Shown: positions 9,341-46,609, counted from the stretch's first letter. The stretch: DNA of 48,177 bases from Planctomycetota bacterium (GCA_040375075.1 JBEITC010000001.1:1-48177); one strand, 5' to 3'. Translations and numbers: made by a program. Notes: generated by a model from the letters alone, not told the origin.

Positions 9341-9379
9341 CGTGGCGAGGGATCGGAAGCCAGTCTCGATTGGCCGGGC

Positions 9380-10015: not shown

Positions 10016-10016
10016 G

Positions 10017-15165: not shown

Positions 15166-15187
15166 GGGTTTGGTTCCGTGCGCGCCG

Positions 15188-28060: not shown

Positions 28061-28066
28061 AACCCC

Positions 28067-28426
28067 ATGAAGAAGTTCTGCGTCACCCTCACTTCCGCCA
28101 AGAACGATCCCGACAAGGCCACCGTCGCCTTCGTCGTCGCCAACGCCGCCGCCGCCAGCGAGCAGGAGACGGTGATGTTCCTCAGCGTCGAGGCCGTGCG
28201 CCTCTGCCAGCAGGGCTACGCCGACGACATCGCCGAGGAAGGCTTCGCGCCGCTCAAGGACCTGATCGCCAACTTCGTCAAGGCGGGCGGCAAGGTCTGG
28301 GTCTGCTCGCCGTGCTTCAAGCGCCGCAAGCTCGACGAGTCGAAGCTCATTCCCGGCGCGACCATCGTCGGCGGCGCCAAGCTGGTCGAGTTCCTGTCGC
28401 AGGGCGCGCCCTGCGTCAGCTACTGA
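28067..28426 (+). CDS. DsrE/DsrF-like sulfur-relay family protein (119 aa)
   Basis: Size, the MKKFCVTLTS...ATVAFVVANAAAA start and GGKVWVCSPCFKRRKL...GATIVGGAKLVEF match the DsrE/TusD-type fold pattern. Confidence 0.75.
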   Translation: MKKFCVTLTSAKNDPDKATVAFVVANAAAASEQETVMFLSVEAVRLCQQGYADDIAEEGFAPLKDLIANFVKAGGKVWVCSPCFKRRKLDESKLIPGATIVGGAKLVEFLSQGAPCVSY

Positions 28427-28453
28427 GCCCCGCCTGACGACCGCAGCGCGGCG

Positions 28454-29182
28454 ATGACCGATCCGGACCTGTTCGACCGCGCCGACGCGACCTGCGACGG
28501 CGGCGACCTCGACTGCGGCAGCGGCCTGCTGCTGATCATCCGCAGCGCCTTCCAGCCGGTGCCGGCCGGCGGCTCGCTGCTGGTCAAGAGCCGCGAGACG
28601 TCGGTGCGCGAGGACCTGCCAGCGTGGTGCCGCCTCGTCGGCCACACGATCGAGGCCGAACGCGACGCCGAGAACGGCTACCGGCACTTCCTGCTGCGCA
28701 AGAAGGTCGACGACCAGGCCCTCGCCGGCGACCTGCAGAAGGCCCGCGCACACGTCTGGCAGACGCGCTCGCGCTGGACCGGCGGCATGCAGGCCAAGGC
28801 GACGATGCGCAACCACAGCGTCGCCATCGGCCAGCCGGCCAGCTTCGACACCGAGGACCAAGCGCCCTCGGCGATCGAACTGCTGCTCGCCGCCGTCGCC
28901 GGTGCCCTCACCACCGGCTTCCAGTGGCGGTTGTCGCAGAAGGGCGTCGAGGTGCACGACCTCGAGGTCGTCGCCAAGGCCCGCTCCGCCGACCCGCTGG
29001 TCTTCCTCGGCGTCGCCAACGACGGCAACCCGGGCCTCGCCGACGTCGACGTGACCGCGTACGTCAGCGCCAGCGGCGACGCCGACCTCGACGCCGAGTG
29101 GCGCGAGACGGTCCGCCGGTGTCCCGTCACCCAATCCCTGCTCCGCTCCGCCCCGGTGCGCACGACGCTGCGCGCCCTCTAG
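28454..29182 (+). CDS. TusA-like domain fused to an OsmC-family domain (242 aa)
   Basis: The N-terminus CDGGDLDCGSGLLLIIRSAFQPVPAGGSLLVKSRETSVREDLPAWCRLVGHTI is paralogous to the TusA-like domain of the 27428 gene. The C-terminal half (PSAIELLLAAVAGALTTGF...RRCPVTQSL) matches the OsmC/Ohr pattern. Confidence 0.8.
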   Translation: MTDPDLFDRADATCDGGDLDCGSGLLLIIRSAFQPVPAGGSLLVKSRETSVREDLPAWCRLVGHTIEAERDAENGYRHFLLRKKVDDQALAGDLQKARAHVWQTRSRWTGGMQAKATMRNHSVAIGQPASFDTEDQAPSAIELLLAAVAGALTTGFQWRLSQKGVEVHDLEVVAKARSADPLVFLGVANDGNPGLADVDVTAYVSASGDADLDAEWRETVRRCPVTQSLLRSAPVRTTLRAL

Positions 29183-29186
29183 ACTG

Positions 29187-30332
29187 ATGCGCCACCGCCC
29201 GATCCCCCGATTCCCCGTCAGCGTCGTCGGCAGTTGGCCTCGGCCCCGCTGGCTGCTCGAGGCGATGCGCAAGAAGGCCGCCGACCTGCCGGAGCTGCGC
29301 GACCAGGCGACGCTGCTGGCGATCAAGCAGCAGGAAGACGCAGGCGTCGACGTGCTGACCGACGGCGAGCAGCGCCGCGACAACTTCTACTCCTTCCTGA
29401 CCGAGAAGCTCGACGGCGTCGCACTGATGTCGATGGCCGATCTGCTCGACTACGTCGAGGACAAGGCGGCCTTCGAGGGCTTGCTGCAGGCGCTCGACGT
29501 GCCGGCCTTCGCGATCAAGAACCCCACCATCACCGGCCGCCTCGTCCGCCGCGAGCCGCTGGCGGTGCGCGAGGCGGAGTTCCTGCGCCGCCACACCACG
29601 CGCGCCACCAAGGTCGCGCTGCCGGGCCCGTACCTGCTGTCGCGTTCGATGTGGGTGCAGAAGCTGTCGTCGCAGGCCTACCCGACGCGCGAACTCCTTT
29701 GCGACGACATCGTCGCCATCCTGCGCGCCGAGTTGCAGGAGCTGGCGGACCTGGGCGTCGAGATCGTGCAGTTCGACGAGCCGGTGCTGACCGAGCTGGT
29801 GTTCGCCGGCAAGGCGGCGACGCGCACGTTCATGTGCGCCGCGCTCGCCGCCGCCGCGGACCCGGCGGCGGAGCTGGAGCTCGCCGTCACCCTGATGAAC
29901 CGCGTGACCGAGGGCATCCGCGGCGTGCGCACGGCGATGCACGTCTGCCGCGGCAACTGGAGCCGCAACGAGGACGTGCTGCTGGCCGGCGACTACGCGC
30001 CGCTGCTGCCGCACCTCGCGCGCATGCAGGTCGACCAGTTCGTGCTCGAGTACGCGACGCCGCGCGCCGGCCCCGAGGCGCTGTTGGCCCAGCTGCCGGC
30101 CCGCGCCAGCGTCGGCTTCGGCGCCGTCAACCCGCGCACCGAGCCCGACGAGGATCCGGCGGCGATCGCCGCGCGCGTCGGCAAGCTGGCCGAACTGCTC
30201 GGCCCGGACCGCATCTGGCTGAATCCGGACTGCGGCTTCGGCACCTTCGCCGAGCGGCCCGTGGCCACCGGCGCCGTGGCCGAGCGCAAGTGCGCGATCC
30301 TGGCCGAGGCGGCGCGCCTGCTGCGCGCCTGA
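29187..30332 (+). CDS. short cobalamin-independent methionine-synthase-like protein (MetE C-terminal/Meth_synt_2 type, 381 aa)
   Basis: VVGSWPRPRWL N-terminal motif and TDGEQRRDNF. The zinc ligand pattern is conserved: H-x-C in AMHVCRGNW (nt 29940-29948) and C in NPDCGFG (nt 30231-30233). Confidence 0.85.
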   Translation: MRHRPIPRFPVSVVGSWPRPRWLLEAMRKKAADLPELRDQATLLAIKQQEDAGVDVLTDGEQRRDNFYSFLTEKLDGVALMSMADLLDYVEDKAAFEGLLQALDVPAFAIKNPTITGRLVRREPLAVREAEFLRRHTTRATKVALPGPYLLSRSMWVQKLSSQAYPTRELLCDDIVAILRAELQELADLGVEIVQFDEPVLTELVFAGKAATRTFMCAALAAAADPAAELELAVTLMNRVTEGIRGVRTAMHVCRGNWSRNEDVLLAGDYAPLLPHLARMQVDQFVLEYATPRAGPEALLAQLPARASVGFGAVNPRTEPDEDPAAIAARVGKLAELLGPDRIWLNPDCGFGTFAERPVATGAVAERKCAILAEAARLLRA

Positions 30333-32896: not shown

Positions 32897-35800
32897 TCAG
32901 CGGGCGGCCTGCCGCCGCAACCCGAGCCACTGAACGACCGGCGTCAACAGCAGGCTGAGCCAGAGGCACAGCGACTGCCCGCCGATCACGACGACCGCGA
33001 TCGCCTTGCGCTCCTCGGCGCCCGGCCCTGCGCCGACCGCCAACGGCAGCATGCCGGCGACGAACGCCAGCGTGGTCATCAGGATGGGGCGGAGGCGGTT
33101 GCGGCTGCCCAGCACGACGGCTTCGTGCGCCGGCACGCCGGCGCGCAGCAACTGGTTGGTGTGGTCGACCTGCAGGATGGCGTTCTTCTTGACCATCCCG
33201 AACAGCACCAGGATGCCGAGCGCCGAGTAGAGGTTGAGCGTCTCGCCGGTGGCCCACAGCGACAGCAGCGCGAACGGCGCCGCGACGGGGATCGCCAGCA
33301 GGATGATCAGCGGCTGCGTGAAGCTCTCGAACTGAGCCGCCAGGATCATGTACATGAACACCAGCGCGAGCAGGAAGGCGCCGAGGAACTCGCCGCCGGC
33401 CTGCTCGAGCTCGCGCGCGCTGCCTGCGACGGCCGTCGAGTACTCGCTCGGCAGCTGCAGCTCCCCCGCCAACCGACGCGGGTCGGCGACGGCATCCGCG
33501 AGCGCAGCGCCCGGCGCTGGGCTGCCGCGCAGGCTCGCCTGCCGCTGGCGGTCCATGCGGTCGATGCGCGACGACGTGGTCGCCGGCTCGATGCGGACGA
33601 GGTTGTCGACCCGCACCGTGCCGCCGTCGATGCGTCCGACCAGCAGTTCGCCGATGCGGTCGACGCGCTGGCGGTCGGCCTCGCGCAGGCGCAGGCGGAC
33701 GTCGTACTCCTCGTCGAGCTTGGGGTCGCGGAAGCGCGAGACCTCGGTGACGCCGCCGACCATCAACCGGAGCGCCGTCGCGATGTCCTGCGTCGACACG
33801 CCGAGTTCGGCAGCGCGTGGGCGGTCGATCTGGACGCGCAGCTCCGGCCGCCGCAGCCGCAACGTCGTGTCGAGGTCGATCATCGAGCCGACCTTGCTGG
33901 CGGAGAGCCGCAGCTCCTCCACCGAGCTCGCCAACGTCACGAGGTCCGGCCCGCGGATGGCGAAGTCGAGCGGGAACGGGCCGCCGCCGAGGTTGAAGCT
34001 GCGCTGGTTGCGCACCGACACCCGCACGTCGGTCAGCTTGCGCAGCCGCTGGCGGATCTCCGCCATGACCTCGCGCTGCGTGTAGTTGCCGCGGAACGCC
34101 GCCGCCGGGTCGCCGGCGAGCGTCGCCCGCCAGAGGCGATCGAGCGAGACGCGGCGGTGCTCGTGCGGCGCGATGCGCACGTAGACGCTGCCGTTCGACA
34201 GGCCGCTCAGGAAGCCGCCGCCGACCTGGGTGAGCGCGACCGCCACCGCCGGCACCTGCGCCAGCTCGGCCTCGACCGCGCGCATCACGCCGTCCATCGC
34301 CGCGAGGCTGGCGTCGTCGGGGCCGTTGACGTTGATCTCGAACTCGCCTTCGTCGACGTCGCTCGGGATGAAGTCCTGGCGCACCTTGCCGGCGAGCGCC
34401 ACGGTGCTGCCGACGACGAGCGCGGAGCCGAGCACGACGAGCCACGGCCGGCGCAGGCAGCCACGCAGGGCGGCCGCGTAGGCGCGCTCCGACCAACCGC
34501 CGCCGTGGGCCTTGCGCGCGCCGGACGCGGGTCGCACCAGCCGCGCGCACATCGCCGGCGTCAAGGTGAACGAGACGACGAGCGAGAGCAGGACGGCGAC
34601 CGCCGCGGTGATGCCGAACTGGAAGAGGAAGCGGCCGGTGATGCTGGAGAGGAACGAGACCGGCACGAAGATCACGACGAGGCTGAGCGTCGTCGCCAGC
34701 ACCGCCAGCGCGATCTCGCCGACCGCCTCGCGGGCCGCCTGGAACGGCGGCAGGCCCTTCTCGTCGGCCCAGCGCTGCACGTTCTCGAGCACGACGATGG
34801 CGTCGTCGATGACGACGCCGACCATCAGCACCAGCGCCAGCATGGTCACGCCGTTGAGCGTGAAGCCGAGCGTCCACATCACGCCGAAGGTCGCGACCAC
34901 CGACACCGGGATCGCGACGCCGGCGATCAGCGTGGCCCGCCAGCTGCGCAGGAACCACATCACGACGAGGGCCGCCAGCAGCGAGCCGACGACCAGGTGG
35001 AACTCGATCTCGTGCAGCGCGGCCCGGATGTAGCGCGACTGGTCGCGCACGATCTCGAGCCGCAGGTCCGGCGGCAGCTGCGCGCGCAGCGCTTCGATCG
35101 CGCCGAGCACGCCATCGATGGCGGCGACGGTGTTGGCGCCGGACTGACGACGAACCTCCAGCACGACCGTCGGCACGCCGTTCAAGCGCGCCAACGAGCG
35201 CGCCTCGGCGGTGCCGTCCTCGATCTGCGCGACGTCGCCCAGCTCGACCGGGACGCCGTTGCGGCGCGCGATCGTCAGCGTGCGGAACGCCGCCGGATCG
35301 AGCACCCGCCCGAGCGTGCGCAGGGTGCGTTCGCGCTGGTCGTCGGTGACGTTGCCGCCGGGCACGTCGCTGTTCTGGCGCCGGATCGCGTCGCTGACCG
35401 CGTCGACCGGCAGGTCGTACGCGGCGAGCCGGTCGGCGTCGATCCAGACGTTGATCGTGCGTTCGACGTCGCCGACGAGGCGCACCTCGCCGACGCCCCG
35501 GCCACGTTCGAGCACGCGCTTGATGCGCTTGTCGGCGATCTCCGACAGCTCGCGCATCGGCCGGTCGCCGGCGAGGGCCAGCGTCAGCACCGGCGAGCTG
35601 TCGCTGTCGAACTTGCTGACCACCGGCGGCTCGCAGTCCTCCGGCAGGCGGCGCATGGCCTGCGACACGCGGTCGCGCACGTCCTGCGCCGCGGCGTCGA
35701 TGTCGCGGCCGAGGTCGAACGTCACCAGCACCAGCGAGGTGCCCGCGCCCGAGATCGAACGCAGCTCCCGGATGCCCTCGACGGTGTTGACGAGCTCCTC

Positions 35801-36004
35801 GATCGGATACGTGACCGAGACCTCGACCTCCTCGGGCGCGCCGCCAGGCAGCTCGGTGCGCACGGTGACGGTCGGCAGGTCGTACGCCGGGTAGCGATCG
35901 ACGGCGAGGAAGTGGAAGCCGACCGCGCCGGCGACCACCATCGCCAGGATCAGCATGGTGGCGAACACCGGCCGGTGGATGCAGACGTCGGCGAGCTTGC
36001 GCAC
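32897..36004 (-). CDS. RND efflux transporter permease (AcrB/HAE-like, 1035 aa), GTG start
   Basis: No ATG precedes the conserved N-terminus in frame 32897..37162. GTG at 36004-36002 gives VRKLADVCIHRPVFATMLILAMVVAG, 2 nt after the TAG of the adaptor gene. Length and the alternation of 12 hydrophobic segments with two large loops fit the RND superfamily. Confidence 0.9.
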   Translation of the reverse strand: MRKLADVCIHRPVFATMLILAMVVAGAVGFHFLAVDRYPAYDLPTVTVRTELPGGAPEEVEVSVTYPIEELVNTVEGIRELRSISGAGTSLVLVTFDLGRDIDAAAQDVRDRVSQAMRRLPEDCEPPVVSKFDSDSSPVLTLALAGDRPMRELSEIADKRIKRVLERGRGVGEVRLVGDVERTINVWIDADRLAAYDLPVDAVSDAIRRQNSDVPGGNVTDDQRERTLRTLGRVLDPAAFRTLTIARRNGVPVELGDVAQIEDGTAEARSLARLNGVPTVVLEVRRQSGANTVAAIDGVLGAIEALRAQLPPDLRLEIVRDQSRYIRAALHEIEFHLVVGSLLAALVVMWFLRSWRATLIAGVAIPVSVVATFGVMWTLGFTLNGVTMLALVLMVGVVIDDAIVVLENVQRWADEKGLPPFQAAREAVGEIALAVLATTLSLVVIFVPVSFLSSITGRFLFQFGITAAVAVLLSLVVSFTLTPAMCARLVRPASGARKAHGGGWSERAYAAALRGCLRRPWLVVLGSALVVGSTVALAGKVRQDFIPSDVDEGEFEINVNGPDDASLAAMDGVMRAVEAELAQVPAVAVALTQVGGGFLSGLSNGSVYVRIAPHEHRRVSLDRLWRATLAGDPAAAFRGNYTQREVMAEIRQRLRKLTDVRVSVRNQRSFNLGGGPFPLDFAIRGPDLVTLASSVEELRLSASKVGSMIDLDTTLRLRRPELRVQIDRPRAAELGVSTQDIATALRLMVGGVTEVSRFRDPKLDEEYDVRLRLREADRQRVDRIGELLVGRIDGGTVRVDNLVRIEPATTSSRIDRMDRQRQASLRGSPAPGAALADAVADPRRLAGELQLPSEYSTAVAGSARELEQAGGEFLGAFLLALVFMYMILAAQFESFTQPLIILLAIPVAAPFALLSLWATGETLNLYSALGILVLFGMVKKNAILQVDHTNQLLRAGVPAHEAVVLGSRNRLRPILMTTLAFVAGMLPLAVGAGPGAEERKAIAVVVIGGQSLCLWLSLLLTPVVQWLGLRRQAAR

Positions 36005-36006
36005 GG

Positions 36007-37206
36007 CTACTCCACGACCTGCACGGGCGTTTCGGGCGACATGCCCGTCGCTTCCGCGACGACGCGATCGCCGACGGCCACGCCGCGGACGACCTCGACC
36101 GCCTCGCCCACCGACCGACCGAGCTCGACCAGCACGCCCTTGGCGCGCAGCGTGCCGTCCTTGTCCTTGGCGACCGTGAACACGCGCTCGACGCCGGCGA
36201 AGCTCACCACCGCCGCGCGCGGCACGGTGACGACCGGCGCGGCCGCCGCGACGACGATGCGGGCCCGGCAGAACGCGCCCGGCAACAGCGCGCCGTCGGC
36301 GTTCTGCACCTCTGCCTCGACGAGGCGCGTGCGGTCGCCCCGGTCGATCGCCGGGCCGGTGCGCACCACCTTGCCGACGCGCTCGACGGCGTCGGCGCCA
36401 TCGACGGTGAACTCGACCGACTGACCGGAGGCGATGCCGAAGGCGAGGCGGTCCGGCACGCGCAGCCGCAGCCGCAGCGGATCGACCCGCAGCAGGGTGA
36501 CGACCGGAGCGCCGCCTTGCACGACCTGGCCGACGGCGACCTGGCGCATGGCGACGCGGCCCGGCCAAGGCGCTGTGACCGAGGCGTCGCGTCGCCGCTT
36601 GTGCGCCTGCGCCAGTTCGATGCGGCGCAGCTTGGCGTCGGCGATCCAGGTGCGGACGTCGTCGCGCGCGCGGCGCAGCCGGTTCTCGGCGACGGCGAGC
36701 GCTGCGGTGGCGACCTCCAGTTGCGACGACGCCTGCAGCGAGCCTTCGACGAGCTTGACGACGCGCTCGCGGTTGAGCCGCGCCTCGACCACCACGGCCT
36801 CGGCTTCGCGCACGCTCGGCGCCTGCTCGACGTCGAACGCGGCGGGATCGGCGCCGGCGGCAAGCCCGAGGCGGGCGTCGGCGGCGCCCATCGTCGCCTC
36901 GGCGCGTTCGATCGCGAGGTCGAACTCGCGGGGATCGAGCGTCGCGATCACGTCGCCGGCCGCGACCACGTCGCCGACGTCGACCCCGAGCCACGAAATG
37001 CGGCCGCCGACCTCGAGGCCGAGCACGAGTTCTTCCTGGGCGGCGAGCACGCCGCTGACGGCGACCTTGCTCGGCAGCGAGGCCTCGGCGGCGGCGACGA
37101 GACGAACCGTCTTGGACGCACGCGGCGCGGCGACCGCGCCCTCCGACGTGCCTCGCCCGCACGCGGCGAAGGCGGCCGCGAGCACGATCCCGAGGCGGCG
37201 AGCCAT
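36007..37206 (-). CDS. RND efflux periplasmic adaptor (membrane fusion protein), lipoprotein (399 aa)
   Basis: Starts MARRLGIVLAAAFAACG (lipobox). Barrel-sandwich and coiled-coil pattern (GGRISWLGVDVGDVVAAGDVIATLDPREFDLAIERAEA...). The ATG at 37206 shares a base with the TGA of the upstream ATP-grasp gene. Confidence 0.85.
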   Translation of the reverse strand: MARRLGIVLAAAFAACGRGTSEGAVAAPRASKTVRLVAAAEASLPSKVAVSGVLAAQEELVLGLEVGGRISWLGVDVGDVVAAGDVIATLDPREFDLAIERAEATMGAADARLGLAAGADPAAFDVEQAPSVREAEAVVVEARLNRERVVKLVEGSLQASSQLEVATAALAVAENRLRRARDDVRTWIADAKLRRIELAQAHKRRRDASVTAPWPGRVAMRQVAVGQVVQGGAPVVTLLRVDPLRLRLRVPDRLAFGIASGQSVEFTVDGADAVERVGKVVRTGPAIDRGDRTRLVEAEVQNADGALLPGAFCRARIVVAAAAPVVTVPRAAVVSFAGVERVFTVAKDKDGTLRAKGVLVELGRSVGEAVEVVRGVAVGDRVVAEATGMSPETPVQVVE

Positions 37207-38423
37207 CACCCGGCCACCACCGTCAGGTCGTTGACGAAGCGCTCCGACATCTCGAGGGTCTGGGCGAGGTCCGGGTGGCGGACGACGATCCAGCCGTCGC
37301 CGACGACGACCTTGCGCCAGTCGCGCTTCTGCTCGCCGATCGGCGTCAGCTCGATCGTGGCGACGTGCGGGCCATAGCGGCGCATGAGCTCGGCGAGGCC
37401 GCGGTGCTCCTTGACCGTGCCCTCGCCCTGGCCGCGCTTGAAGATCATCGAGCTGTTGTACTTCTTGGTGACGTCCTGGCTCAGCCGCCCGAAGCACGCG
37501 GCCTCGGCCCAGCCGGCGAACAGGTCGACGTCGCACGAGTAGTTCATCGCGTGCACGAGGCGCGCGCCGGCGGGCCGGCCGCCGATCTCGCCGAACACGG
37601 CCTCGCCCTTCGCCGTGCGGAACCACTCCATGTGCGTGAAGCCGGTGCCGAAGCCCAAGGCCTTGATCACGGCGCGCCCGAGCTCGACGCCCGGCCGCGG
37701 CAGGTCCTGGTCCAGGTCGCGCAGGACGATGTTCTGCATCGAGATCCACGGGCTCTGCGCCAGCACCATGGGCTTGGGCCGGTACCACGCGACGCTCTCG
37801 AACAGGATGCGGCCGTCGACGCACACCGTGTCGTACGTCAGCTCCTCGCCCTCGATGAACTCCTCCACCGAGAGCACGTCGATGTGGCGGACCTTCTCCA
37901 GCGCCGCCGCGAACTCCGCCTTGTCGTTGCAGCGGTACGTGTCCTTGCTGCCGGCGCCGTCGATCGGCTTGACGATCGCCGGGTAGCCGATGCGCTCGAC
38001 GTGCGCCCAGGCTTCCTTGGCGGTGTGGGCCTTGCCGTGGCGCGGCACGCGCAGGCCGGCCTTCTCGACCGCCTGCTTCATCGTCTCCTTGTCGCGGAAC
38101 ACCTCGGTCTGGGCCTTGCTCATGCCCGGCAGGCCGAAGCGCTCGCGCAGCGTCGCCGCGAGGTACATCAGCCGCTCCCACAGGCACTCGACGCGATCGA
38201 CCGAGCGGCCGCGCAGCCAGGCGTGGATCTCCTCGGCGGCCTTCTTCTCGTCGCCGAACGACGACACCTGCAGATAGTCCGTCAACGCCTCGCGCGCCTC
38301 GACGGGCAAGGCGGCCGCGGGCTGGTCGCCGACGCCGAGGACCTTGGCGCCGACCTTGGCGAGCCCGCGCACGAACAGCGGCATCTCGGCGGGGAAACCG
38401 GGACTGAGGAAGACGACGTTCAT
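37206..38423 (-). CDS. ATP-grasp ligase, paralog 1 (405 aa)
   Basis: ORF 37206..38534 trimmed to MNVVFLSPGFPAE. ATP-grasp motifs present: FRDKETMK, GYPAIVKPIDGAGSKD, VEEFIEGEE, THMEWF, FGEIGGRPAG. Confidence 0.8.
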   Translation of the reverse strand: MNVVFLSPGFPAEMPLFVRGLAKVGAKVLGVGDQPAAALPVEAREALTDYLQVSSFGDEKKAAEEIHAWLRGRSVDRVECLWERLMYLAATLRERFGLPGMSKAQTEVFRDKETMKQAVEKAGLRVPRHGKAHTAKEAWAHVERIGYPAIVKPIDGAGSKDTYRCNDKAEFAAALEKVRHIDVLSVEEFIEGEELTYDTVCVDGRILFESVAWYRPKPMVLAQSPWISMQNIVLRDLDQDLPRPGVELGRAVIKALGFGTGFTHMEWFRTAKGEAVFGEIGGRPAGARLVHAMNYSCDVDLFAGWAEAACFGRLSQDVTKKYNSSMIFKRGQGEGTVKEHRGLAELMRRYGPHVATIELTPIGEQKRDWRKVVVGDGWIVVRHPDLAQTLEMSERFVNDLTVVAG

Positions 38424-38442
38424 GGCTTGGGCAGGGCTCGGT

Positions 38443-39669
38443 TCAGGCGGTTTCGACGCGGACGGTGCGGACGACGTGCTGGACGGCGCGTTCGACGACG
38501 GCGGTGTCCGGGTGGCGACAGAGCACGTAGCCATCGCCTTCGTAGGTGGCGGCCTTCGGCTTGCCGACCTGCGGCTCCTTGACCTCCACGGCGACGTCGC
38601 CGAGCTCGGCGCGCACGGCGTCGAGGCCGTGCACGGCGCGGATCACGGCCTCGGGACCGCCCCCCTGGCCGCGCAGGTAGGCGGCGCCGGCGGCGAAGCG
38701 CCGCGGCGGCGGCACGAAGGTCTCGAAGACCATCAGCTCGGCGAACGCGCGGTACATGTCGACGTCGGTCACGAGGCTCATCAACGTCATGAACTGCGCG
38801 CCCGGCGGCCGCGCGGCGACCTCGCCGATGGCGATGCTGCCGTCGGCGCGGCGGAACCACTCCATGTGCGACATGCCGTTCCACATGCCGAGCATGCTGA
38901 GCGCGCGCGGACCGACGCGATGGATGTCGGCGAACTCCGGCCCCGACAGGTCGCGCGGCAGCACCACGGCCCATTGGATCCACGGGTTCTCCATCACCTG
39001 CAGCGGCGTCGGGTGGTAGCAGCAGACGTTGTGGAAGACGTGGCGGCCGTGCAGCGTGACCGAGTCGAACGAGAACTCGCGGCCGGTGACGAACTCCTCG
39101 AGCAGCACGCCGCGGCCCGGCGCCGGCCGCAGGGCGCGCACGAACTCGGCGAGCGCCGTCTGGTCGTCGAGCCGCGACGTCGCCTTGGCGCCGGCCCCCG
39201 CCGGCGGCTTGTCGACGACCGGGAAGCCGACCTCGCGCACGAAGGCCTCCGCGTCCGCCAGCGAGGCGCACAGCCGGTGGCGCGCGCACGGCACGTCGTC
39301 CGCGGCGAACAGGTCCTTCATGCGCGACTTGTCGCGGAAGTTGCGGGCCGTCTGCGCGTCCATGCCGCGGATGCGCAGCTGCTCGCGCACCGCCGCCAGC
39401 GACTCCTGCAGCGGCTCGAGGATGCCGAGCAGGCGCGTGACCGGGCCGCAGCGCGCCCCGAGCCGCTCGACCGCGGCGGCCAGCAGGTCGGGCTTCAGCG
39501 CGTCGACGACACGCTCGTACCCGGCCGCCGCCTCGCGCAGATCGGGTGGGAACCGATCGATCGGATCCTGCGACACGAGGCTCAGTCGCACCCCCGGCAG
39601 CGCCGCCGCGGCGCGCGCGAAGCGAAGCGTGTTCTCCATCGCGAACGGGATCACGAAGCAGACGTGCAT
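38443..39669 (-). CDS. ATP-grasp ligase, paralog 2 (408 aa)
   Basis: ORF 38443..39930 trimmed to MHVCFVIPFAMENT (ATG at 39669). Motifs FRDKSRMK, GFPVVDKPPAGAGAKA, LEEFVTGRE, SHMEWF, IGEVAARPPG are collinear with paralogs 1 and 3. Confidence 0.8.
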   Translation of the reverse strand: MHVCFVIPFAMENTLRFARAAAALPGVRLSLVSQDPIDRFPPDLREAAAGYERVVDALKPDLLAAAVERLGARCGPVTRLLGILEPLQESLAAVREQLRIRGMDAQTARNFRDKSRMKDLFAADDVPCARHRLCASLADAEAFVREVGFPVVDKPPAGAGAKATSRLDDQTALAEFVRALRPAPGRGVLLEEFVTGREFSFDSVTLHGRHVFHNVCCYHPTPLQVMENPWIQWAVVLPRDLSGPEFADIHRVGPRALSMLGMWNGMSHMEWFRRADGSIAIGEVAARPPGAQFMTLMSLVTDVDMYRAFAELMVFETFVPPPRRFAAGAAYLRGQGGGPEAVIRAVHGLDAVRAELGDVAVEVKEPQVGKPKAATYEGDGYVLCRHPDTAVVERAVQHVVRTVRVETA

Positions 39670-39790
39670 GCGACGCCAGACGGTAGCCAGCCAGCGCGCC
39701 TCCTGCCACGACGAGCCTTCGGGCTGGGCCACAGTCCGCAGGCGCGCCTTTGCCGTGGCACCTGGCCGCAGTGCGTGCCAACATCCGCGC

Positions 39791-41266
39791 ATGCGTCCGC
39801 TGCGCCTCGCCCTCTGCGCATCCGAAGTCGCGCCGTTCGCCAAGACCGGCGGCCTCGCCGACGTGCTGCTCGGCCTCGGCCGGTGGCTCGGCCGCAAGGC
39901 CCCAGCCGGCCCCGGCCACGACGTGCGCATCTTCCTGCCCTACTACAAGAAGATCGCCGCGTCCGGCCTCGCGACGACGCCGCTCGCCGGGGCGCAGGAC
40001 ATCGAGGTGCGCTTCCCGTCCCGCACGATCCGCTTCTCGATCCGCACGGCGCCGCTGCCGCAGAGCGACGTGCTCGCGCACTTCGTCGACTGCAAGGAGC
40101 TCTACGACCGCGACGGCATCTACACCGAGGATGGCGACGAAGCGCTGCGCTTTGGCCTGCTGTCGCGCGCGGTCCTGGAGACCTGCCAGCGGCTGCAGTG
40201 GGCGCCCGACGTCGTGCACTGCAACGACTGGCACACCGGCCTGCTGCCGCTGTACCTGCGCACGGTCTACGCCTGGGACCGGCTGTTCGCCGCCACCAAG
40301 ACCGTCCTGACGATCCACAACATCGGCTACCAGGGCCTGTTCGACGCCGCCCAGCTCGACGTGCTCGGCCTCGGCGACCAGCGCGCGCACGTGCACCACG
40401 GCGACCTGCGCGACGGCAAGGTGTCGTTCCTCAAGACCGGCGTGCTGCACGCCGGTCGGCTGACCACGGTGTCGAAGACCTACGCCCGCGAGATCCAGAC
40501 CGCCGAGTTCGGCATGGGCATGGACGAACTGCTGCGGCAGCGCGGCAGCGAACTGGTCGGCATCGTCAACGGCGTCGACTACGGCGAGTGGAGCCCCGCC
40601 GACGACCCGCGCATCCCGCACCACTACACCGCCGACGACCTCGCCGGGAAGGCGAAGATGAAGGCGGCGATGCTGCAGCGCTTCCAGCTGCCGCACGACC
40701 CGCGCGCGCCGGTGTTCGGCGTCGTGTCGCGCCTCACCGCGCAGAAGGGCTTCGAGCTGTTCGCCGACTCGATCCCGGTGTTCCTGCAGCGCGAAGACAT
40801 GCGCCTGTGCGTGCTCGGGTCGGGCGACGACAAGCACGAGAGCTACTTCCAGTGGCTGCGCGACACCTGGCCGAAGAAGGTCGGCGTCTACCGCGGCTTC
40901 CAGGAAGACCTCGCGCACTGGATCGAGGCCGGCAGCGACGTCTTCCTGATGCCGAGCCGCTTCGAGCCGTGCGGGCTCAACCAGATGTACAGCCTGCGCT
41001 ACGGCACGCCGCCGATCGTGCGGCGCACCGGCGGGCTCGCCGACACCGTCGAAGCGTGGAACCCGGACACCCGCACGGGCACCGGCTTCCTGTTCGACGA
41101 CTTCAGCAGCCAGGCGCTCGCCGGCACGATCGACTGGGCGCTGCGCAACTGGCGCGACCAGAAGGGCTGGCAGCAGCTGATGAAGAACGGCATGCAGAAG
41201 GACTTCTCGTGGGACCGCCAAGGCCCCGAGTACGTAGCCCTCTACCGCGCCCTGACCGGTCTGTGA
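39791..41266 (+). CDS. glgA: GT5 glycogen/starch synthase-like alpha-glucan synthase (491 aa)
   Basis: ORF 39029..41266 trimmed to MRPLRLALCASEVAPFAKTGGLADV (KTGGL motif). Also HCNDWHTGL, TVSKTYAREI, SRLTAQKG and PSRFEPCGLNQMY. Confidence 0.9.
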   Translation: MRPLRLALCASEVAPFAKTGGLADVLLGLGRWLGRKAPAGPGHDVRIFLPYYKKIAASGLATTPLAGAQDIEVRFPSRTIRFSIRTAPLPQSDVLAHFVDCKELYDRDGIYTEDGDEALRFGLLSRAVLETCQRLQWAPDVVHCNDWHTGLLPLYLRTVYAWDRLFAATKTVLTIHNIGYQGLFDAAQLDVLGLGDQRAHVHHGDLRDGKVSFLKTGVLHAGRLTTVSKTYAREIQTAEFGMGMDELLRQRGSELVGIVNGVDYGEWSPADDPRIPHHYTADDLAGKAKMKAAMLQRFQLPHDPRAPVFGVVSRLTAQKGFELFADSIPVFLQREDMRLCVLGSGDDKHESYFQWLRDTWPKKVGVYRGFQEDLAHWIEAGSDVFLMPSRFEPCGLNQMYSLRYGTPPIVRRTGGLADTVEAWNPDTRTGTGFLFDDFSSQALAGTIDWALRNWRDQKGWQQLMKNGMQKDFSWDRQGPEYVALYRALTGL

Positions 41267-41300
41267 TCCCGATCGGCCCCTGAACCCGAGCCGCCACGCC

Positions 41301-42521
41301 ATGCACGTCGTCCTGATCGAACCCTGCTTCCCGAAGAACCAGCGCGAGTTCCTGCGCGGCCTGCTGAGCACCGGCGCGCGCGTGTCGGCGATCAGCGAGC
41401 GGCCGCCCGAGGCGTTGCCGCCGGAGCTGCGCGACGACCTCTTCCAGTACGAGCGCGTCCGCTCGGTCGTCGACGAGCACGCGCTCGCCGAGGCGTGCAA
41501 GCGGCTCGCGCTGCGCGCCCGCATCGACCGCCTCGAAGCGACCGTCGAAGCGCACGTGATGGCCGCCGCGCACGTGCGCGAGCAGCTCGGCATCCACGGC
41601 ACCACGTCGAAGACGGCGTGGCTGTGCCGCGACAAGCCGGCGATGAAGGAAGCCGTGCGCGCCGCCGGCCTCGGCTGCGCCGCCAGCGCGCGCGTGCGCA
41701 CGGTCGCCGACGCCGAGGCGTTCGCCAAGGCCAACGGCTACCCGTTGATCCTCAAGCCGATCGACGGCGCCGGCGCCTCGGGCGCCACCAAGTGCGACGA
41801 CGACGCGGGCCTGCGTGCTGCGTGCGAGCAGCTCAAGGTCGGCAGCGGCCGCGAGGTCGCGATCGAGGAGTACCTCGAAGGCCACGAAGGCTTCTACGAC
41901 ACGGTCTCCGTCAACGGGAAGGTCGTACTCGACTTCGTCAGCCACTACTACCCCAACGTGCTGGAGGCGATGCGGACGCGCTGGATCAGCCCGCAGATCG
42001 TCGTCAGCAACCGGATCGAGCAGGACAGCTACAAGGAGCTGCGCGCGTTCGGCCAGAAGGTCGTCTCGGCGCTCGGCATCTGGACGTCGCCGACGCACAT
42101 GGAGTGGTTCTTCGGCCAGAAGGGCCTGAAGTTCTCCGAGATCGGCTGCCGGCCGCCGGGTGTCGGCGTCTGGGACCTGTACTGCGCGGCCAACGAGTTC
42201 GACCTCTACGCCGCCTGGGCGCACGCGATCGTGCACGAGCAGGTGCCGTTCCAGCCGAGCCGCAAGTACTCGGCCGGCATGATCGCGCTGCGACCGGACA
42301 AGGACGGCGTCATCTCGCACTACGACGGCTGGGACCGCTTCCAGCAGCAGCACGGCGAGTGGATCCTCGACAGCCACCTGCCGCCGGCCGGCACGCCGAC
42401 GCAGGGCGTCGAGGCCGGCTACATGGCCAACGCCTACGTGCGCATGCGCCACCCCGACTTCGACCAGTTGCGCGCGCTGTTGAACGCCTGCGGCGAACAG
42501 GTGAAGGTGAAGGCCCGATGA
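41301..42521 (+). CDS. ATP-grasp ligase, paralog 3 (406 aa)
   Basis: Starts MHVVLIEPCFPKN. Motifs CRDKPAMK, GYPLILKPIDGAGASG, IEEYLEGHE, THMEWF, FSEIGCRPPG. Begins 34 nt after glgA. Confidence 0.85.
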   Translation: MHVVLIEPCFPKNQREFLRGLLSTGARVSAISERPPEALPPELRDDLFQYERVRSVVDEHALAEACKRLALRARIDRLEATVEAHVMAAAHVREQLGIHGTTSKTAWLCRDKPAMKEAVRAAGLGCAASARVRTVADAEAFAKANGYPLILKPIDGAGASGATKCDDDAGLRAACEQLKVGSGREVAIEEYLEGHEGFYDTVSVNGKVVLDFVSHYYPNVLEAMRTRWISPQIVVSNRIEQDSYKELRAFGQKVVSALGIWTSPTHMEWFFGQKGLKFSEIGCRPPGVGVWDLYCAANEFDLYAAWAHAIVHEQVPFQPSRKYSAGMIALRPDKDGVISHYDGWDRFQQQHGEWILDSHLPPAGTPTQGVEAGYMANAYVRMRHPDFDQLRALLNACGEQVKVKAR

Positions 42522-42892
42522 TCCCCCGCTCTGCCCGTTCCCTCCTCGCCACCGCCGGGCTCGCCGTTCTCGGCGGCTGCGCTGTCGGCGCCCACAAGCG
42601 CGTCGATGGCCGTGAGTTCGCGCGCCTGTGCGACACCGCCGCGTCGACGACGCGCGCGACGACCTGGATCGGCCGCACCGGCGACCGCGCCTACATCGAG
42701 GTCTGGTACGGCGGCGCCTGGTGGATCGGCGGCGGCGTCGACGTGTGCAGCGTGCTGCTCGCCGACCTGCCCGTGCCGGTGCGCGAGGCGATCCAGCGCG
42801 GCCAGGATCCGACGACGCTGCCGAAGGACGCGCTGATGCCGCCACCGGCGCCGCGCAAGCCCGAGGCCGCCGCCGCCGCCGACGGCGAGTGA
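42518..42892 (+). CDS. small lipoprotein of unknown function (124 aa)
   Basis: Last 124 codons of ORF 41495..42892: MIPRSARSLLATAGLAVLGGCAV (lipobox LGGC). The ATG at 42518 forms an ATGA overlap with the stop of ATP-grasp paralog 3. Confidence 0.6.
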   Translation: MIPRSARSLLATAGLAVLGGCAVGAHKRVDGREFARLCDTAASTTRATTWIGRTGDRAYIEVWYGGAWWIGGGVDVCSVLLADLPVPVREAIQRGQDPTTLPKDALMPPPAPRKPEAAAAADGE

Positions 42893-42908: not shown

Positions 42909-43640
42909 CTAGGCGTCTGCCAGGCGGAAACGCTGCACGCCCACGCCGAGCGCGCGCATGGCCGCCGCACCGACGAAGTCCGGTCCCGGCGAGACGTCGA
43001 GCATCGACCACTTCGCCGCGTCCTCCTTGCCGTCGCGGATCGCGACGAAGCGCGGCTCCTCGCACAGGCTGACGTCGAAGACGTCGAGCGGCATCGACAG
43101 GCCTTCGCCGAGCGCCTTGATGTAGGCCTCCTTGCGCGTCCAGCAGCGATAGAACGCCAGCTCGCGCGCATCGCCCTGCAGCGCGTCGAGCGCCGCGAAC
43201 TCCGACGGCGAGAAGTGCTTGCGCGCGATCTCGGTCAGGCTGTCGAGGCGGCGGACCTTCTCGACGTCGAGGCCGACCTCGGTCTTCGACACGCCGATCA
43301 GCGCCAGCTTGCCGCTGTGCGAGAGGTTGAAGTGCGGCCCGGCGGCGGCGAGGTACGGCTTGCCGCGCGGACCGGCGGTGAACTCGACGTCGGCAGGTCC
43401 GCAGCCGAGGTAGCCGGCGAGGATCAGCCGCAGCGCGCCGTGGCCGATCTGGTAGCGACGGCGGTGGTCGGCGAAGTGGAAGCGGCTGAGCCGCTGGTTC
43501 TCCGCCTTCGAAAGGTGGGCGCCGAGCCGCTCCGGATCACCGGTCAGCGGCACGGCCCACACGTGCAACGCGCCATCGCCGAGGGTCTGCCCGCCGACGC
43601 GGGCCGTGGCGAAGGTGTCGTGCAGGGCAAGCTCATCCAT
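42909..43640 (-). CDS. 4'-phosphopantetheinyl transferase, Sfp type (243 aa)
   Basis: FNLSHSG, GLDVEK and WTRKEAYIKALG correspond to the three conserved PPTase motifs. Confidence 0.85.
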   Translation of the reverse strand: MDELALHDTFATARVGGQTLGDGALHVWAVPLTGDPERLGAHLSKAENQRLSRFHFADHRRRYQIGHGALRLILAGYLGCGPADVEFTAGPRGKPYLAAAGPHFNLSHSGKLALIGVSKTEVGLDVEKVRRLDSLTEIARKHFSPSEFAALDALQGDARELAFYRCWTRKEAYIKALGEGLSMPLDVFDVSLCEEPRFVAIRDGKEDAAKWSMLDVSPGPDFVGAAAMRALGVGVQRFRLADA

Positions 43641-43688
43641 GGGGCACGAGCAGCCTAGCCGCTCGCCGCCGTTCGGGAAGCCGGCCGA

Positions 43689-46562
43689 TCAGCGAATGTC
43701 CCGCCGGAACGGCGCGGCCAGGAAGCCATGCGACGACTGCAGCGACCACTCCGGCACGGCAGCCCACGCGTAGCGAACCTGCGTCGGCACGGGCACGGCG
43801 CCGTTCTGCAACTCGACCATGCCATCGACCATTCGCGCCGCCGCCGGCCGGAACATGCCGTCCGCCCCCGCCAGCTCGAAGCCGTTGCCATGGGCGGCGA
43901 GCGCGAGTTCGCCTGCGCCTTGGAACGCGAGCAGCACGCGCGCACCGTCGCGCCGTGCGTCGACGCAGACCGGACCTTCGCACGGCACGGTTTCCCCGTA
44001 GGTGCGCGCCCGCGCCAGCGCGGCGAGCCGCTCGCCGACCGGTCGCTTCGCGCGCGGATGGATGTCCTTCGCCTCGCCGACGTCGAGCGTCACCACCATG
44101 CCGGTCTTCGGCAGCGCGAGCGCTGCAGCCTGCGCCTCGCGCAGCTCCGCCGTCTGTCCGGTGTCGTTGCCGTAGTCGTACGGCGCGATCTGCACGAAGT
44201 GGAACGCCAGCGCGTCGCCGAAGCCGCCGCGCCAATCGCGCACCAGCGCTGGGAACAAGCGGGCGTACTGGGTCGCGCGCCCGCGGTTGCTCTCGCCCTG
44301 GTACCAGATGGCGCCAGCGAACGGGAACGGTTGCAGCGGCGCGATCATGCCGTTCCACAGCACGCTGGCGCGATTGGGCCCGCCGTCGCGCGGCCAGGCC
44401 GGCAACTGCGCGAGCTTCGCCAGCGTCCGTCGTTGCCAACCATCGACGAGCGGGCGCGCCGTCTCCGGCGCCTCGCGCCGCAGCACGCGGAGCGCCGTCG
44501 CCGCGCCGCCGAAGCCGCCCTCGCCATTGGTGTCGACGACCCGCACACGCAGCTCGTGCGCGCCCGCGGTCGCCAGTCGACCAGGAACCACGTACGACCG
44601 GGGCGTGCTCCAGGCGCTGTCGCGATCCATGCCGCCGATGCGCTCCCCGTCCCACGTCGCGACATCCATGTCGTCGATCGGACCGAGCTCGACGACGAGA
44701 TCGGCGCCCGCCCACGCCGCCGGCACGTCGACGGCGACCCGGTACTCGGCGGCGCCATCGAAGTCGGCGAGCCCGGAGCTCGACCAGACGTCGGGCATCG
44801 CGCAGACGACGAACGTGCCCGCGGCGGCGGCTTCGACGCCACGCCAGAAACCACGCCGACGCGCTGCCGGATCCCCGGTGGCGCCGTCGCGCAACTGCGC
44901 CAACTGGCCGGCGAACTCGGGGAACTCGCGCAAACCGTCGGCGCTGGTCCAGGCTTCGGCGACGGTCCCGCCCCACGCGCTGACGACGAGCCCGAACGGT
45001 CGGCCGCGCGCCTGCTGCAGCGCGCGCGCGAAGTGGAAGCCGACCGCCGAGAAGTCCTTGGCGACCGCTGGCGTGCACACCTGCCATGCGCCATCGCAAT
45101 CGCTGAGCGGCAGATCGCTCGCGCGACGCGCGACGGTGAACACGCGCAGCGTCGGCAGGTCGGCGGCGGCGATCGCCTCCACGTGGCCGTCGATGCCTTG
45201 GCTCCAACCGGCCTTGCCGAGCTGCATCTCCATGTTGCTCTGGCCGGACGCCAACCAGACGTCGCCGGCGAGCACGTCGCGCACTTCGACGCGCTCGTCG
45301 CCGCACGCAACGGTGAACGTGTGCGGCCCGCCCGGCGTCGTCGGCGTGGCGAGATCGACGGCGAAGCGACCGTCCATGCCAGCGCGCGCATCGGCCGCAG
45401 CGCCCCACGACGCGGCCACGCGCACGGTGGCACCCGGCGACGCCACGCCACGCACCGCCACGGTCGCGCCGACCGGGACGACCATGTGGTCGGAGAACAG
45501 CCGCGCAAGCCGCAGCGGCTGCGGCGGCCAGCCGGCGCGCCGCGCGATCCGGCCGCCGCTGCCCGCGGCCCAGACGCTGCCGTCGCGGCCGACGGCGCAG
45601 GCGTGGAAGCCGGTGGACTCCTGCGTCGTTGCGCCGCCATCGCGCCAAGCGGTCGCCCCGTCCGAGCCGACCGCGAGCGCTTGCCCATCAGCGAGCCAAG
45701 CTACCGCCGAACGGAAGCCGCCGAAGCCACCGACCGCCGTCCACGTGCGGCCGCCGTCCGTGGTCTGCGCCGCGCCGCCGACCGTCGGATCGGCATAGTC
45801 ACCGCCGACGACGAGGCCGCGTTGCCCGCGGAACGCGAGGCCGAACGCGCCGCGCGACGGCGCGCCCGCTGGCAGCGGCAGCTCGTGCGCCGTCCAACCT
45901 TCGGCGTCGCCGCGCAGCAACCGCGCGCGCGCGCCGCCACCAGTGGCGATCCAGAAGGTCTCGCGACCCGGCGCGCCCGTCACGGCGACGCACGAACCAC
46001 TCGCCGCGAAGGCGGCTTCGCCCGGCAGCGGCGCAGGCAGGCTCGCAGCGGGCACAGCCTGCCACGACCCGCCGCCGTCGCGCGTCGTCCACACGCTGAA
46101 CGCGCCATCGATCGGATCGCCGAACAACACACCGACGTCGCCTTGGAACGCCATCGCGTCGAAGAACGCGCCGGCACGATCGTCCGCCAGCACGGTGCGC
46201 CACGTGGCGCCGGCGTCGTCGGTGCGCAGCACGCGCGCCGGCGTGCCAGCGACCATGGCCAGCGCGCGTTCGTCGTCGAAGGCCTCGACGTCGCGGAAGT
46301 CCCAGCGCGACGCGGTGGCCGGCGCGACGTTGCGCCATTGCGCGCCGCCGTCGGTCGAGCGCCAGATCACGCCGCCAGCGCCGCTCGCCCACGCCACCGA
46401 AGCATCGACCGCGCTGATTCCCCGCAGGCTCGCGTCGCCTGCCGCCGTCACGCGCCACGACGAAGCGTCGTCGCCATCGCCGCGCGGAGCGACGCAGGCT
46501 GCGACCAGGAGGAGAGCGAGACAAACGCGCGACAAGGCGGGTCGAGGCATGGCGTGAGGCAT
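43689..46562 (-). CDS. BNR/Ycf48-like beta-propeller fused to sialate O-acetylesterase (SASA/SGNH-type) domain (about 957 aa)
   Basis: ORF 43689..46664 trimmed to MPHAMPRPALSRVCLALLLVAAC; the ATG at 46550 is an alternative start. BNR-like repeats are present (WRSTDGGAQW, TDDAGATW, TRDGGGSW, TTDGGRTW). The second half carries LASGQSNMEMQLG and WYQGESN, typical of 9-O-acetylesterases. Confidence 0.8.
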   Translation of the reverse strand: MPHAMPRPALSRVCLALLLVAACVAPRGDGDDASSWRVTAAGDASLRGISAVDASVAWASGAGGVIWRSTDGGAQWRNVAPATASRWDFRDVEAFDDERALAMVAGTPARVLRTDDAGATWRTVLADDRAGAFFDAMAFQGDVGVLFGDPIDGAFSVWTTRDGGGSWQAVPAASLPAPLPGEAAFAASGSCVAVTGAPGRETFWIATGGGARARLLRGDAEGWTAHELPLPAGAPSRGAFGLAFRGQRGLVVGGDYADPTVGGAAQTTDGGRTWTAVGGFGGFRSAVAWLADGQALAVGSDGATAWRDGGATTQESTGFHACAVGRDGSVWAAGSGGRIARRAGWPPQPLRLARLFSDHMVVPVGATVAVRGVASPGATVRVAASWGAAADARAGMDGRFAVDLATPTTPGGPHTFTVACGDERVEVRDVLAGDVWLASGQSNMEMQLGKAGWSQGIDGHVEAIAAADLPTLRVFTVARRASDLPLSDCDGAWQVCTPAVAKDFSAVGFHFARALQQARGRPFGLVVSAWGGTVAEAWTSADGLREFPEFAGQLAQLRDGATGDPAARRRGFWRGVEAAAAGTFVVCAMPDVWSSSGLADFDGAAEYRVAVDVPAAWAGADLVVELGPIDDMDVATWDGERIGGMDRDSAWSTPRSYVVPGRLATAGAHELRVRVVDTNGEGGFGGAATALRVLRREAPETARPLVDGWQRRTLAKLAQLPAWPRDGGPNRASVLWNGMIAPLQPFPFAGAIWYQGESNRGRATQYARLFPALVRDWRGGFGDALAFHFVQIAPYDYGNDTGQTAELREAQAAALALPKTGMVVTLDVGEAKDIHPRAKRPVGERLAALARARTYGETVPCEGPVCVDARRDGARVLLAFQGAGELALAAHGNGFELAGADGMFRPAAARMVDGMVELQNGAVPVPTQVRYAWAAVPEWSLQSSHGFLAAPFRRDIR

Positions 46563-46609
46563 CAGTATCTTGACGCAGCGGTCGGGCAGCCACGGCCGCG
46601 CTCGCTCGC

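Follow-up and report, generated by a model that had tools for sequence, protein, structure and literature searches.

Several described systems resemble parts of the gene cluster analysed here, which lies at positions 32897-42892 of a 48,177-nucleotide stretch of DNA from a Planctomycetota bacterium (GCA_040375075.1, JBEITC010000001.1:1-48177; the whole stretch is referred to as the window) and carries three ATP-grasp ligase genes (AG1, AG2 and AG3) beside a glycogen synthase gene (glgA). The L-amino-acid ligases (RizA, BL00235, BacD/YwfE) share with the three ligases a three-domain ATP-grasp fold of ~400 amino acids (aa) and the same catalytic positions (Lys, Glu-Glu, His-x-Glu and Glu-x-x-x-Arg-x-x-Gly). 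The known L-amino-acid ligases are single genes in narrow Bacillus antibiotic clusters, whereas here three fixed paralogs occur over several phylum labels and are tied to glgA. The cyanophycin system (CphA and the S51 cyanophycinase CphB) is similar in that relatives of the window pair an ATP-grasp ligase with an S51-type gene in one operon, and in its context of reserve-polymer metabolism. Unlike CphA, the present ligases have no Mur-ligase domain and are 400 aa rather than ~900 aa long; the S51-like gene is very divergent and absent from this window, and cyanophycin clusters have no counterpart of the esterases and the GCS2 ligase found with the module in relatives. As in classical glycogen operons (glgBXCAP type), GlgA is an ADP-glucose glycosyltransferase of family GT5 with all the signature motifs, and related loci add GlgC-, GlgB- and GlgX-like genes, but glgA is the sole glycogen gene in this window. 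We know of no ATP-grasp ligase partner in any described glycogen operon, and none was found in a literature search.

The divergent gene pairs AG2-AG1 and glgA-AG3 form a four-gene core module tied to glycogen genes. The explanation favoured here, to which a probability of about one half is given, is that three intact ligases make an amino-acid-derived cytoplasmic product in step with glycogen, and that this product is turned over by hydrolases in other lineages. The parts are known kinds of enzymes, and their combination and tie to a glycogen synthase appear undescribed: the literature search found no paper joining ATP-grasp enzymes with glgA (one 2009 amidoligase survey, by Iyer and colleagues, was outside its reach) and no description of the layout, in agreement with an earlier note on this DNA (the original prediction), which had not recognised a described pathway.

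Relatives were collected by a scan of species-representative genomes, which gave 587 relatives; unless stated otherwise, counts below refer to the best 80 loci of these 587 (species-level). The 80 loci belong to metagenome-assembled genomes (MAGs) labelled Planctomycetota, Gemmatimonadota, Acidobacteriota/Thermoanaerobaculia, Myxococcota, Actinomycetes, Binatia and Woeseiaceae. Synteny was counted by tblastn of the window proteins onto the relative loci and by clustering of all called genes, and was cross-checked with independent gene calls on public contigs (our own gene calls are crude and trim N-termini). A neighbour was counted when it lay within 10 kb of AG3, and 45 loci had at least 8 kb on both sides. 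Ortholog sets were taken from the related loci (AG1, n=33; AG2, n=35; AG3, n=39), and the AG3 profile and column-conservation alignment contained 35 sequences. Curated profiles were those of Pfam (27-bit cut-off for the ATP-grasp models) and NCBIfam. AG3 was the ligase modelled with AlphaFold2, and Foldseek was run against the Protein Data Bank (PDB). The window DNA has a G+C content of 70-75%; identical copies are present on several metagenome contigs, and the closest named relatives are Planctomycetota MAGs.

Translation and the gene map bore out the gene orders and junctions of the two divergent, putative transcription units of the original prediction. The minus unit starts with AG2 (38443-39669, minus strand, 408 aa), followed by AG1 (37206-38423, minus strand, 405 aa) and by the adaptor and permease genes of an RND pump; the plus unit consists of glgA (39791-41266, plus strand, 491 aa), AG3 (41301-42521, plus strand, 406 aa) and a small lipoprotein gene. 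The units share an intergenic region of 121 bp (39670-39790), and independent gene calls on the identical metagenome contigs gave the same genes. All three ligases exceed the Pfam cut-off for ATP-grasp models and are members of that superfamily: AG1 scored 35.2 bits with PF02222 and also matched ATPgrasp_N, AG2 scored 38 bits with PF02222, and AG3 scored 34.3 bits with PF13535.

The start of AG2 is ambiguous: 408 aa (ATG at 39669) were called in one of three public contigs and 429 aa (63 nt upstream, 38443-39732) in the other two, and the longer form would cut the divergent region to 58 bp. Judged by the alignment with AG1 and AG3, the 408-aa form is the likelier.

Pairwise identity among the three collinear ligases of the window is 29-34%, and RDK..MK, KP..GAG, EE(F/Y), HMEWF and E..RP.G do not vary between them, as had been noted from the DNA. 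In a neighbour-joining tree of the 33, 35 and 39 orthologs, the AG1, AG2 and AG3 orthogroups were each monophyletic, and identity was 53-64% within an orthogroup vs 31-34% between orthogroups. All three orthogroups carry, without exception, R110, K112, K152, E189, E190, H266, E268, E280, R284 and G287 (AG3 numbering). The residues expected to bind ATP and Mg are therefore kept (the Lys in a beta-strand, the Glu-Glu hinge, the His/Glu and Glu ligands of Mg, and the catalytic Arg), which supports, in every orthogroup, the earlier view that no ligase here is a decayed copy. Seven positions that flank the catalytic loops (225, 232, 237, 283, 291, 292 and 294, AG3 numbering) are fixed differently in each orthogroup and include charge swaps (R225 in AG3 vs E in AG2; N237 in AG3 vs R in AG1 and AG2), which suggests three different substrates. 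The three ligases are thus apparently active enzymes that diverged anciently and became specialised.

AG3 is the most conserved member of the set, with 56-82% identity across the 80 loci and 56-65% between MAGs of different phylum labels. Over the 35 aligned sequences from several phylum labels, columns average 73% identity and 105 are invariant; AG3 is at least as conserved as GlgA. Orthologs of AG2 are 42-70% identical and those of AG1 47-82% identical. A domain-fusion search of 150 representatives found one protein of 830 aa (P0259) that is a tandem fusion of two ATP-grasp units of this family, which hints that the paralogs may act as a physical pair. Two other candidates from that search were set aside as probable assembly chimeras (P0157, with a HAD-like N-terminus, and P0165, with a UDP-glucose dehydrogenase fragment), and no fusion partner that would point to a function emerged.

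For placement of the ligases among ATP-grasp families, sequence and predicted structure were both used. Searched with its single sequence against solved structures, AG3 gave RizA (4wd3) as the best match (E 2e-10), and the profile of 35 orthologs matched RizA (4wd3, E 8e-22), BacD (1e-13) and BL00235 (1e-12). The AlphaFold2 model of AG3 (pLDDT 91.1, pTM 0.85) has the three-domain ATP-grasp fold; RizA was its top Foldseek match (E 5e-27, TM 0.73), and all 50 of the 50 PDB matches listed were ATP-grasp enzymes. RizA, BL00235 and YwfE matched with TM scores of 0.73-0.76 at 16-19% identity; PurK, biotin carboxylase and PurT ranked behind them. AG1, AG2 and AG3 are therefore closest to the L-amino-acid ligases (RizA, BL00235, BacD/YwfE) on sequence comparison, and AG3 also on its predicted fold, which answers the profile and structure searches that had been proposed.

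Curated models gave no established identity. With NCBIfam, the three ligases scored 15-40 bits against cut-offs of 243-1027 for PurK, PurT, PurD, Ddl, biotin carboxylase and carbamoyl-phosphate synthase, so that a housekeeping assignment to families such as PurK/PurT, Ddl or the carboxylases, which would have undone the original prediction, was rejected. RimK and LysX were rejected in the same range (15-40 bits vs cut-offs in the hundreds), as were cyanophycin synthetase (TIGR02068, 28-40 bits vs 850, with ~100 model residues matched in proteins of 405-408 aa), BacD (NF053745; 22.2, 24.7 and 38.7 bits vs 850) and DdaF (22 bits vs 840). PADLOC gave no anti-phage defence match for the three ligases, GlgA or the lipoprotein.

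Database names of AG3 orthologs are 'ATP-grasp domain-containing protein', 'formate-dependent GAR transformylase', 'NCAIR synthetase', 'carbamoylphosphate synthase large subunit' and 'acetyl-CoA carboxylase biotin carboxylase subunit family protein'. Judged by profile scores, these automatic names are generic or wrong, and NCBIfam backs none of the purine or carboxylase names. The wider ligase family contains at least 724 representative clusters at E <= 1e-30. With a myxobacterial AG3 as query, 120 of the 120 best matches came from MAGs or metagenomes, which probably explains the scarcity of experimental work.

GlgA is a member of its family by every measure used: it scored 515.1 bits with TIGR02095 (cut-off 328.45) and 464.4 bits with NF001899 (vs 459), matched Glyco_transf_5, and its translation carries KTGGLADV, NDWH, SRLTAQKG, FEPCGLNQ and RTGGLADTV. 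In the window it ends 34 nt before AG3. Of the 80 loci, 57 have GlgA within 10 kb of AG3, and among the 45 with flanks of 8 kb or more on each side, 36 do; at 35 loci GlgA lies directly 5' of AG3 on the same strand, less than 200 nt away. AG1 and AG2 are near AG3 at 36 and 39 loci, respectively, AG2 adjoining AG1. GlgX-like and GlgB-like GH13 genes (assignments confirmed separately) were found near AG3 at seven and five loci, and a GlgC-like gene at four, in two of which it lies between AG2 and GlgA. Altogether a GlgA, GlgX-like or GlgB-like gene is present at 63 of the 80 loci. In two loci (L009, L013) the GlgA-AG3 pair is present with AG1 and AG2 not nearby, and three actinomycete loci (L078, L080, L081) carry AG1, AG2, AG3 and hydrolases with GlgA not within 10 kb.

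The neighbourhood could in principle be meaningless, a housekeeping glgA that happens to stand beside unrelated ATP-grasp genes. This glgA does resemble an ordinary ADP-glucose glycogen synthase, and 17 of the 80 loci have AG3 with no glycogen gene in reach, many of them on short contigs. Set against this, two single-copy genes would be expected within 10 kb of each other by chance in well under 1% of genomes, compared with the 36 of 45 loci observed, and the GlgA-AG3 adjacency persists over several phylum labels, gene orders and orientations. The tie to glycogen genes is therefore genuine, and chance adjacency is considered very improbable. Recent transfer of a single island is likewise argued against by the 56-65% identities of AG3 between phylum labels. 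The synteny of the GT5 gene with the ligases, one part of the conservation that the original prediction asked about, is thus upheld; the parts that concern the pump and the lipoprotein are treated below and are not.

Outside the Planctomycetota sub-clade of the window, a recurrent set of further genes follows AG3 or AG1, as follows: an S51-like protein of ~285 aa with a weak Pfam match (45 of 80 loci), an enterochelin-esterase-type hydrolase (also 45 loci), a divergent fourth ATP-grasp protein of ~375 aa without a Pfam match and with marginal similarity to Ddl (28 loci), a small alpha/beta esterase (24 loci), a GCS2 ligase with two CBS domains (11 loci) and an AstE/AspA-like hydrolase (4 loci). 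The enterochelin-esterase-type hydrolase has Enterochelin_N and Esterase domains in 22 of 25 members, and its best PDB match is Fes (4e-20), followed by CE1 feruloyl esterases. The profile of the fourth ATP-grasp protein gave marginal matches only among solved structures. In five Planctomycetota loci (L026, L044, L070, L074, L075) the S51-like and esterase genes follow AG1, which is the position of the adaptor and RND genes in the window. Almost all occurrences of the module so far are in uncultured members of the Planctomycetota, Myxococcota, Acidobacteriota, Gemmatimonadota and Actinomycetes.

A complete 11-gene module with very short or overlapping junctions is present in a Polyangiaceae MAG (JADJKB010000021; L088, 8492-21227). 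Its order is GlgA, AG3, a 314-aa protein, an esterase, a 236-aa protein, a 416-aa fourth ATP-grasp protein, a second esterase, GCS2 with CBS and AstE_AspA, and then the divergent AG1/AG2 pair. The 314-aa protein, a c3 homologue, holds the c3 (S51-like) position and has no Pfam match on record; the 236-aa protein matches no family. This gene array was taken from independent gene calls, and the other extended operons from our own.

The favoured explanation would work as follows. The ligases have no signal peptides and are therefore expected to be cytoplasmic. Each would convert a carboxylate to an acyl-phosphate and couple it to a nucleophile that differs between the three; an amino group, on an amino acid or on a growing peptide, is the likeliest candidate. 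The three ligases could then carry out three different ligation steps on one product, a short peptide or poly(amino acid). AG3 is apparently co-transcribed with glgA, and the product would thus be made when the cell deposits glycogen, serving beside it as a reserve or stress compound. The operons of most other lineages also carry an S51-like peptidase, two Fes/CE1-type esterases and an AstE/AspA-like amidohydrolase, which would break the product down inside the cell, together with two further ligases (the fourth ATP-grasp enzyme and GCS2-CBS). In the sub-clade of the window, the RND adaptor and permease stand in place of the hydrolases 3' of AG1, a local rearrangement, and the pump may be incidental or may export the product in this lineage. 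The mixture of peptidase- or amidase-like genes with Fes/CE1-type esterases would suit either an amide-linked peptide or polymer, which is favoured, or an ester bond to a sugar or a hydroxy-amino acid. Since a single operon can hold as many as five ligases and four hydrolases, the compound is probably both built and dismantled by the cells.

Several observations weigh against this explanation. The identity of 16-19% to characterised L-amino-acid ligases makes the substrate class an extrapolation, and no family model names AG1-3. The conserved adjacency to glgA shows a functional link but not its kind. None of the accessory hydrolase or ligase genes is present in the 48 kb window; the S51 assignment is weak (Pfam E 1.4e-5), and the profile of the S51-like protein had no significant match among PDB structures. 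Both esterases of the extended clusters are of the Fes/CE1 type and point to ester as much as to amide bonds. Finally, the AG1 stop overlaps the adaptor start, which hints at co-translation of pump and ligases in this lineage.

In the main alternative, the ligases esterify the alpha-glucan, or a glucose-derived metabolite, with an amino acid or another carboxylate, and the Fes/CE1-type esterases of related clusters strip it off again. Ester-forming ATP-grasp enzymes are known (D-Ala-D-lactate ligase and the graspetide ligases). AG3 is tight to GlgA and elsewhere to GlgX-, GlgB- or GlgC-like genes, and the enterochelin-esterase architecture is that of the commonest accessory hydrolase, whose structural relatives, Fes and the CE1 feruloyl esterases, carry sugar-binding N-domains; two accessory esterase members also gave a weak match to the starch-binding model CBM_20 (E 0.0017). 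The actinomycete loci, however, keep all three ligases and hydrolases with no GlgA within 10 kb, the nearest characterised relatives couple two amino acids and not an amino acid and a sugar, and the S51-like, AstE/AspA-like and GCS2 genes fit amide chemistry. We know of no report of aminoacylated bacterial glycogen, and the literature search also found none. Decoration of the glucan is on balance rather unlikely.

Another alternative is that the ligases modify a protein, for example by adding amino acids to glycogen synthase or to a glycogen-granule protein, with the hydrolases reversing the modification. There is a precedent in RimK, which adds amino acids to ribosomal protein S6. The 105 invariant columns of AG3 would be typical of the recognition of a macromolecular partner, GlgA is closely linked in the operon, and the tandem fusion P0259 hints at physical complexes. 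Fold and sequence, on the other side, are nearest to ligases of free amino acids, with RimK and LysX far lower; a search of the clusters showed no conserved candidate substrate open reading frame (ORF), and GlgA is collinear with TIGR02095 over its 491 aa, with no extra tail or domain. A protein target is accordingly thought quite improbable. A conserved small precursor ORF was also looked for inside the clusters, and none was found.

Returning to the favoured cytoplasmic product, a broader proposal is held more tentatively: that the ligases, GCS2-CBS and the four hydrolases, wired to glgA, constitute an undescribed and widespread pathway, possibly for a reserve poly(amino acid) or depsipeptide or for alpha-glucan decoration. 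Glycogen metabolism is among the best-studied bacterial pathways, yet its synthase gene has in AG3 a constant and unexplained partner, which recurs in hundreds of species-level genomes of soil, sediment and wastewater bacteria. Identification of the product could bring to light a storage or stress molecule, or a glycogen modification, not seen before, and would assign a function to the 724 or more sequence clusters now mislabelled as purine-synthesis or carboxylase enzymes.

The remaining genes of the minus unit encode an RND periplasmic adaptor (a membrane fusion lipoprotein; 36007-37206, minus strand, 399 aa; TIGR01730 (RND_mfp), 160 bits vs a cut-off of 94.9) and an RND inner-membrane permease (32897-36004, minus strand, 1035 aa; PF00873 (ACR_tran), 852.8 bits), and both are members of their families. 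As in tripartite RND efflux systems (AcrAB / MdtABC type), the genes of the adaptor and of a 12-helix permease lie side by side and probably share a transcript. The pair differs from those systems in that neither an outer-membrane factor nor a local regulator (TetR type included) was seen among the genes flanking the cluster, as had been noted earlier, in that the permease scored 816 bits with NF033617, a multidrug subfamily model whose cut-off is 1250, and in the joining to a ligase operon, which is unusual and confined to one sub-clade.

The original prediction had described the ligases as coupled to this exporter, and in its main reading the adjoining pump would export a small peptide-like metabolite made by them. 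The junctions fit a single transcript: 19 nt separate AG2 from AG1, base 37206 is common to the AG1 stop and the adaptor start (an ATGA overlap), and 2 nt separate the adaptor from the RND gene. The arrangement is kept in five other, closely related Planctomycetota species (L007, L018-L021), in which AG3 is 66-82% identical, and the ligases resemble the dipeptide-antibiotic ligases BacD and RizA. Yet an RND gene and adaptor follow AG1, and lie near AG3, in these 5 of the 80 loci, and permease orthologs (64-85% identical) were found only there. The pump is missing from the other 75, equally close relatives (L015-L017) having other genes at its position, so that the exporter does not in general travel with the biosynthetic genes. 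Most related clusters have intracellular-type hydrolases in place of a transporter, and the conservation of AG3 over phylum labels would be that of core physiology and not of a niche natural product. The RND pump and adaptor are lineage-specific neighbours, peripheral to the module, and coupling to an exporter is not among its defining features. An exported secondary metabolite has, in our estimate, little probability, and the main correction for this window is that the efflux pump should not steer the functional hypothesis.

The small predicted lipoprotein (42518-42892, plus strand, 124 aa; signal peptide with an LGGC lipobox) starts within the AG3 stop at 42518-42521 (ATGA). It had been counted with the plus unit, but it was found only on the identical contigs (L001-L006) and no counterpart is present 3' of AG3 in L007-L021; it lies outside the conserved module. 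It had no match in Pfam, NCBIfam or PADLOC.

The 121-bp region presumably holds the promoters of both units. A scan for the sigma-70 consensus and for terminators gave no sigma-70 match in this region and did not rise above the shuffled background, and no credible RNA element, riboswitches included, came out of an Rfam scan of 32-44 kb. Read by eye, a -10-like hexamer of the form TAnnnT (TATGCT, TAGGAT, TAGACT, TAGAGT, TACCGT) ends ~6-10 nt 5' of the AG2 start codon in the window (39670-39700) and in relatives of several phylum labels (L017, L018, L020, L023, L028, L070, L075, L082). From its position, it suggests that the AG2 transcript is leaderless or nearly so. TTGC.. and ..CAACAT / TGTCAT boxes were also read by eye just 5' of glgA in Planctomycetota loci.

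No glgB, glgC, glgP or glgX gene was found in the 48 kb, in line with what had been reported (not every window gene was scanned against the family library). The flanks are unrelated to the module: upstream there are pseudopilin-like genes, pheST-like genes, rplT, rpmI, TusA/DsrE/OsmC genes, a MetE-like gene, an S46 peptidase and a hemerythrin, and downstream a phosphopantetheinyl transferase, a large SASA/BNR protein and PSCyt2/PSD1-type genes. The phosphopantetheinyl transferase (243 aa) and the SASA/BNR carbohydrate-esterase-like protein (991 aa) are encoded at 42909-46664 (minus strand), downstream of AG3, and the pair keeps its place in six close Planctomycetota relatives (L007-L009, L011, L015, L016), not further out. 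At 27428-30332 (plus strand), TusA-domain, DsrE-like and TusA+OsmC-like genes are followed by a cobalamin-independent methionine-synthase-like gene, a sulfur-transfer-type cluster with no evident tie to the ligases. The long minus-strand gene run at 31-17134 contains several pseudopilin-type N-termini (GFTLIELLVV / GFTLFELLVV), a 1717-aa protein (3210-8360) and a 649-aa protein with an FHA-like start, and these features suggest a type II secretion or type IV pilus-like system.

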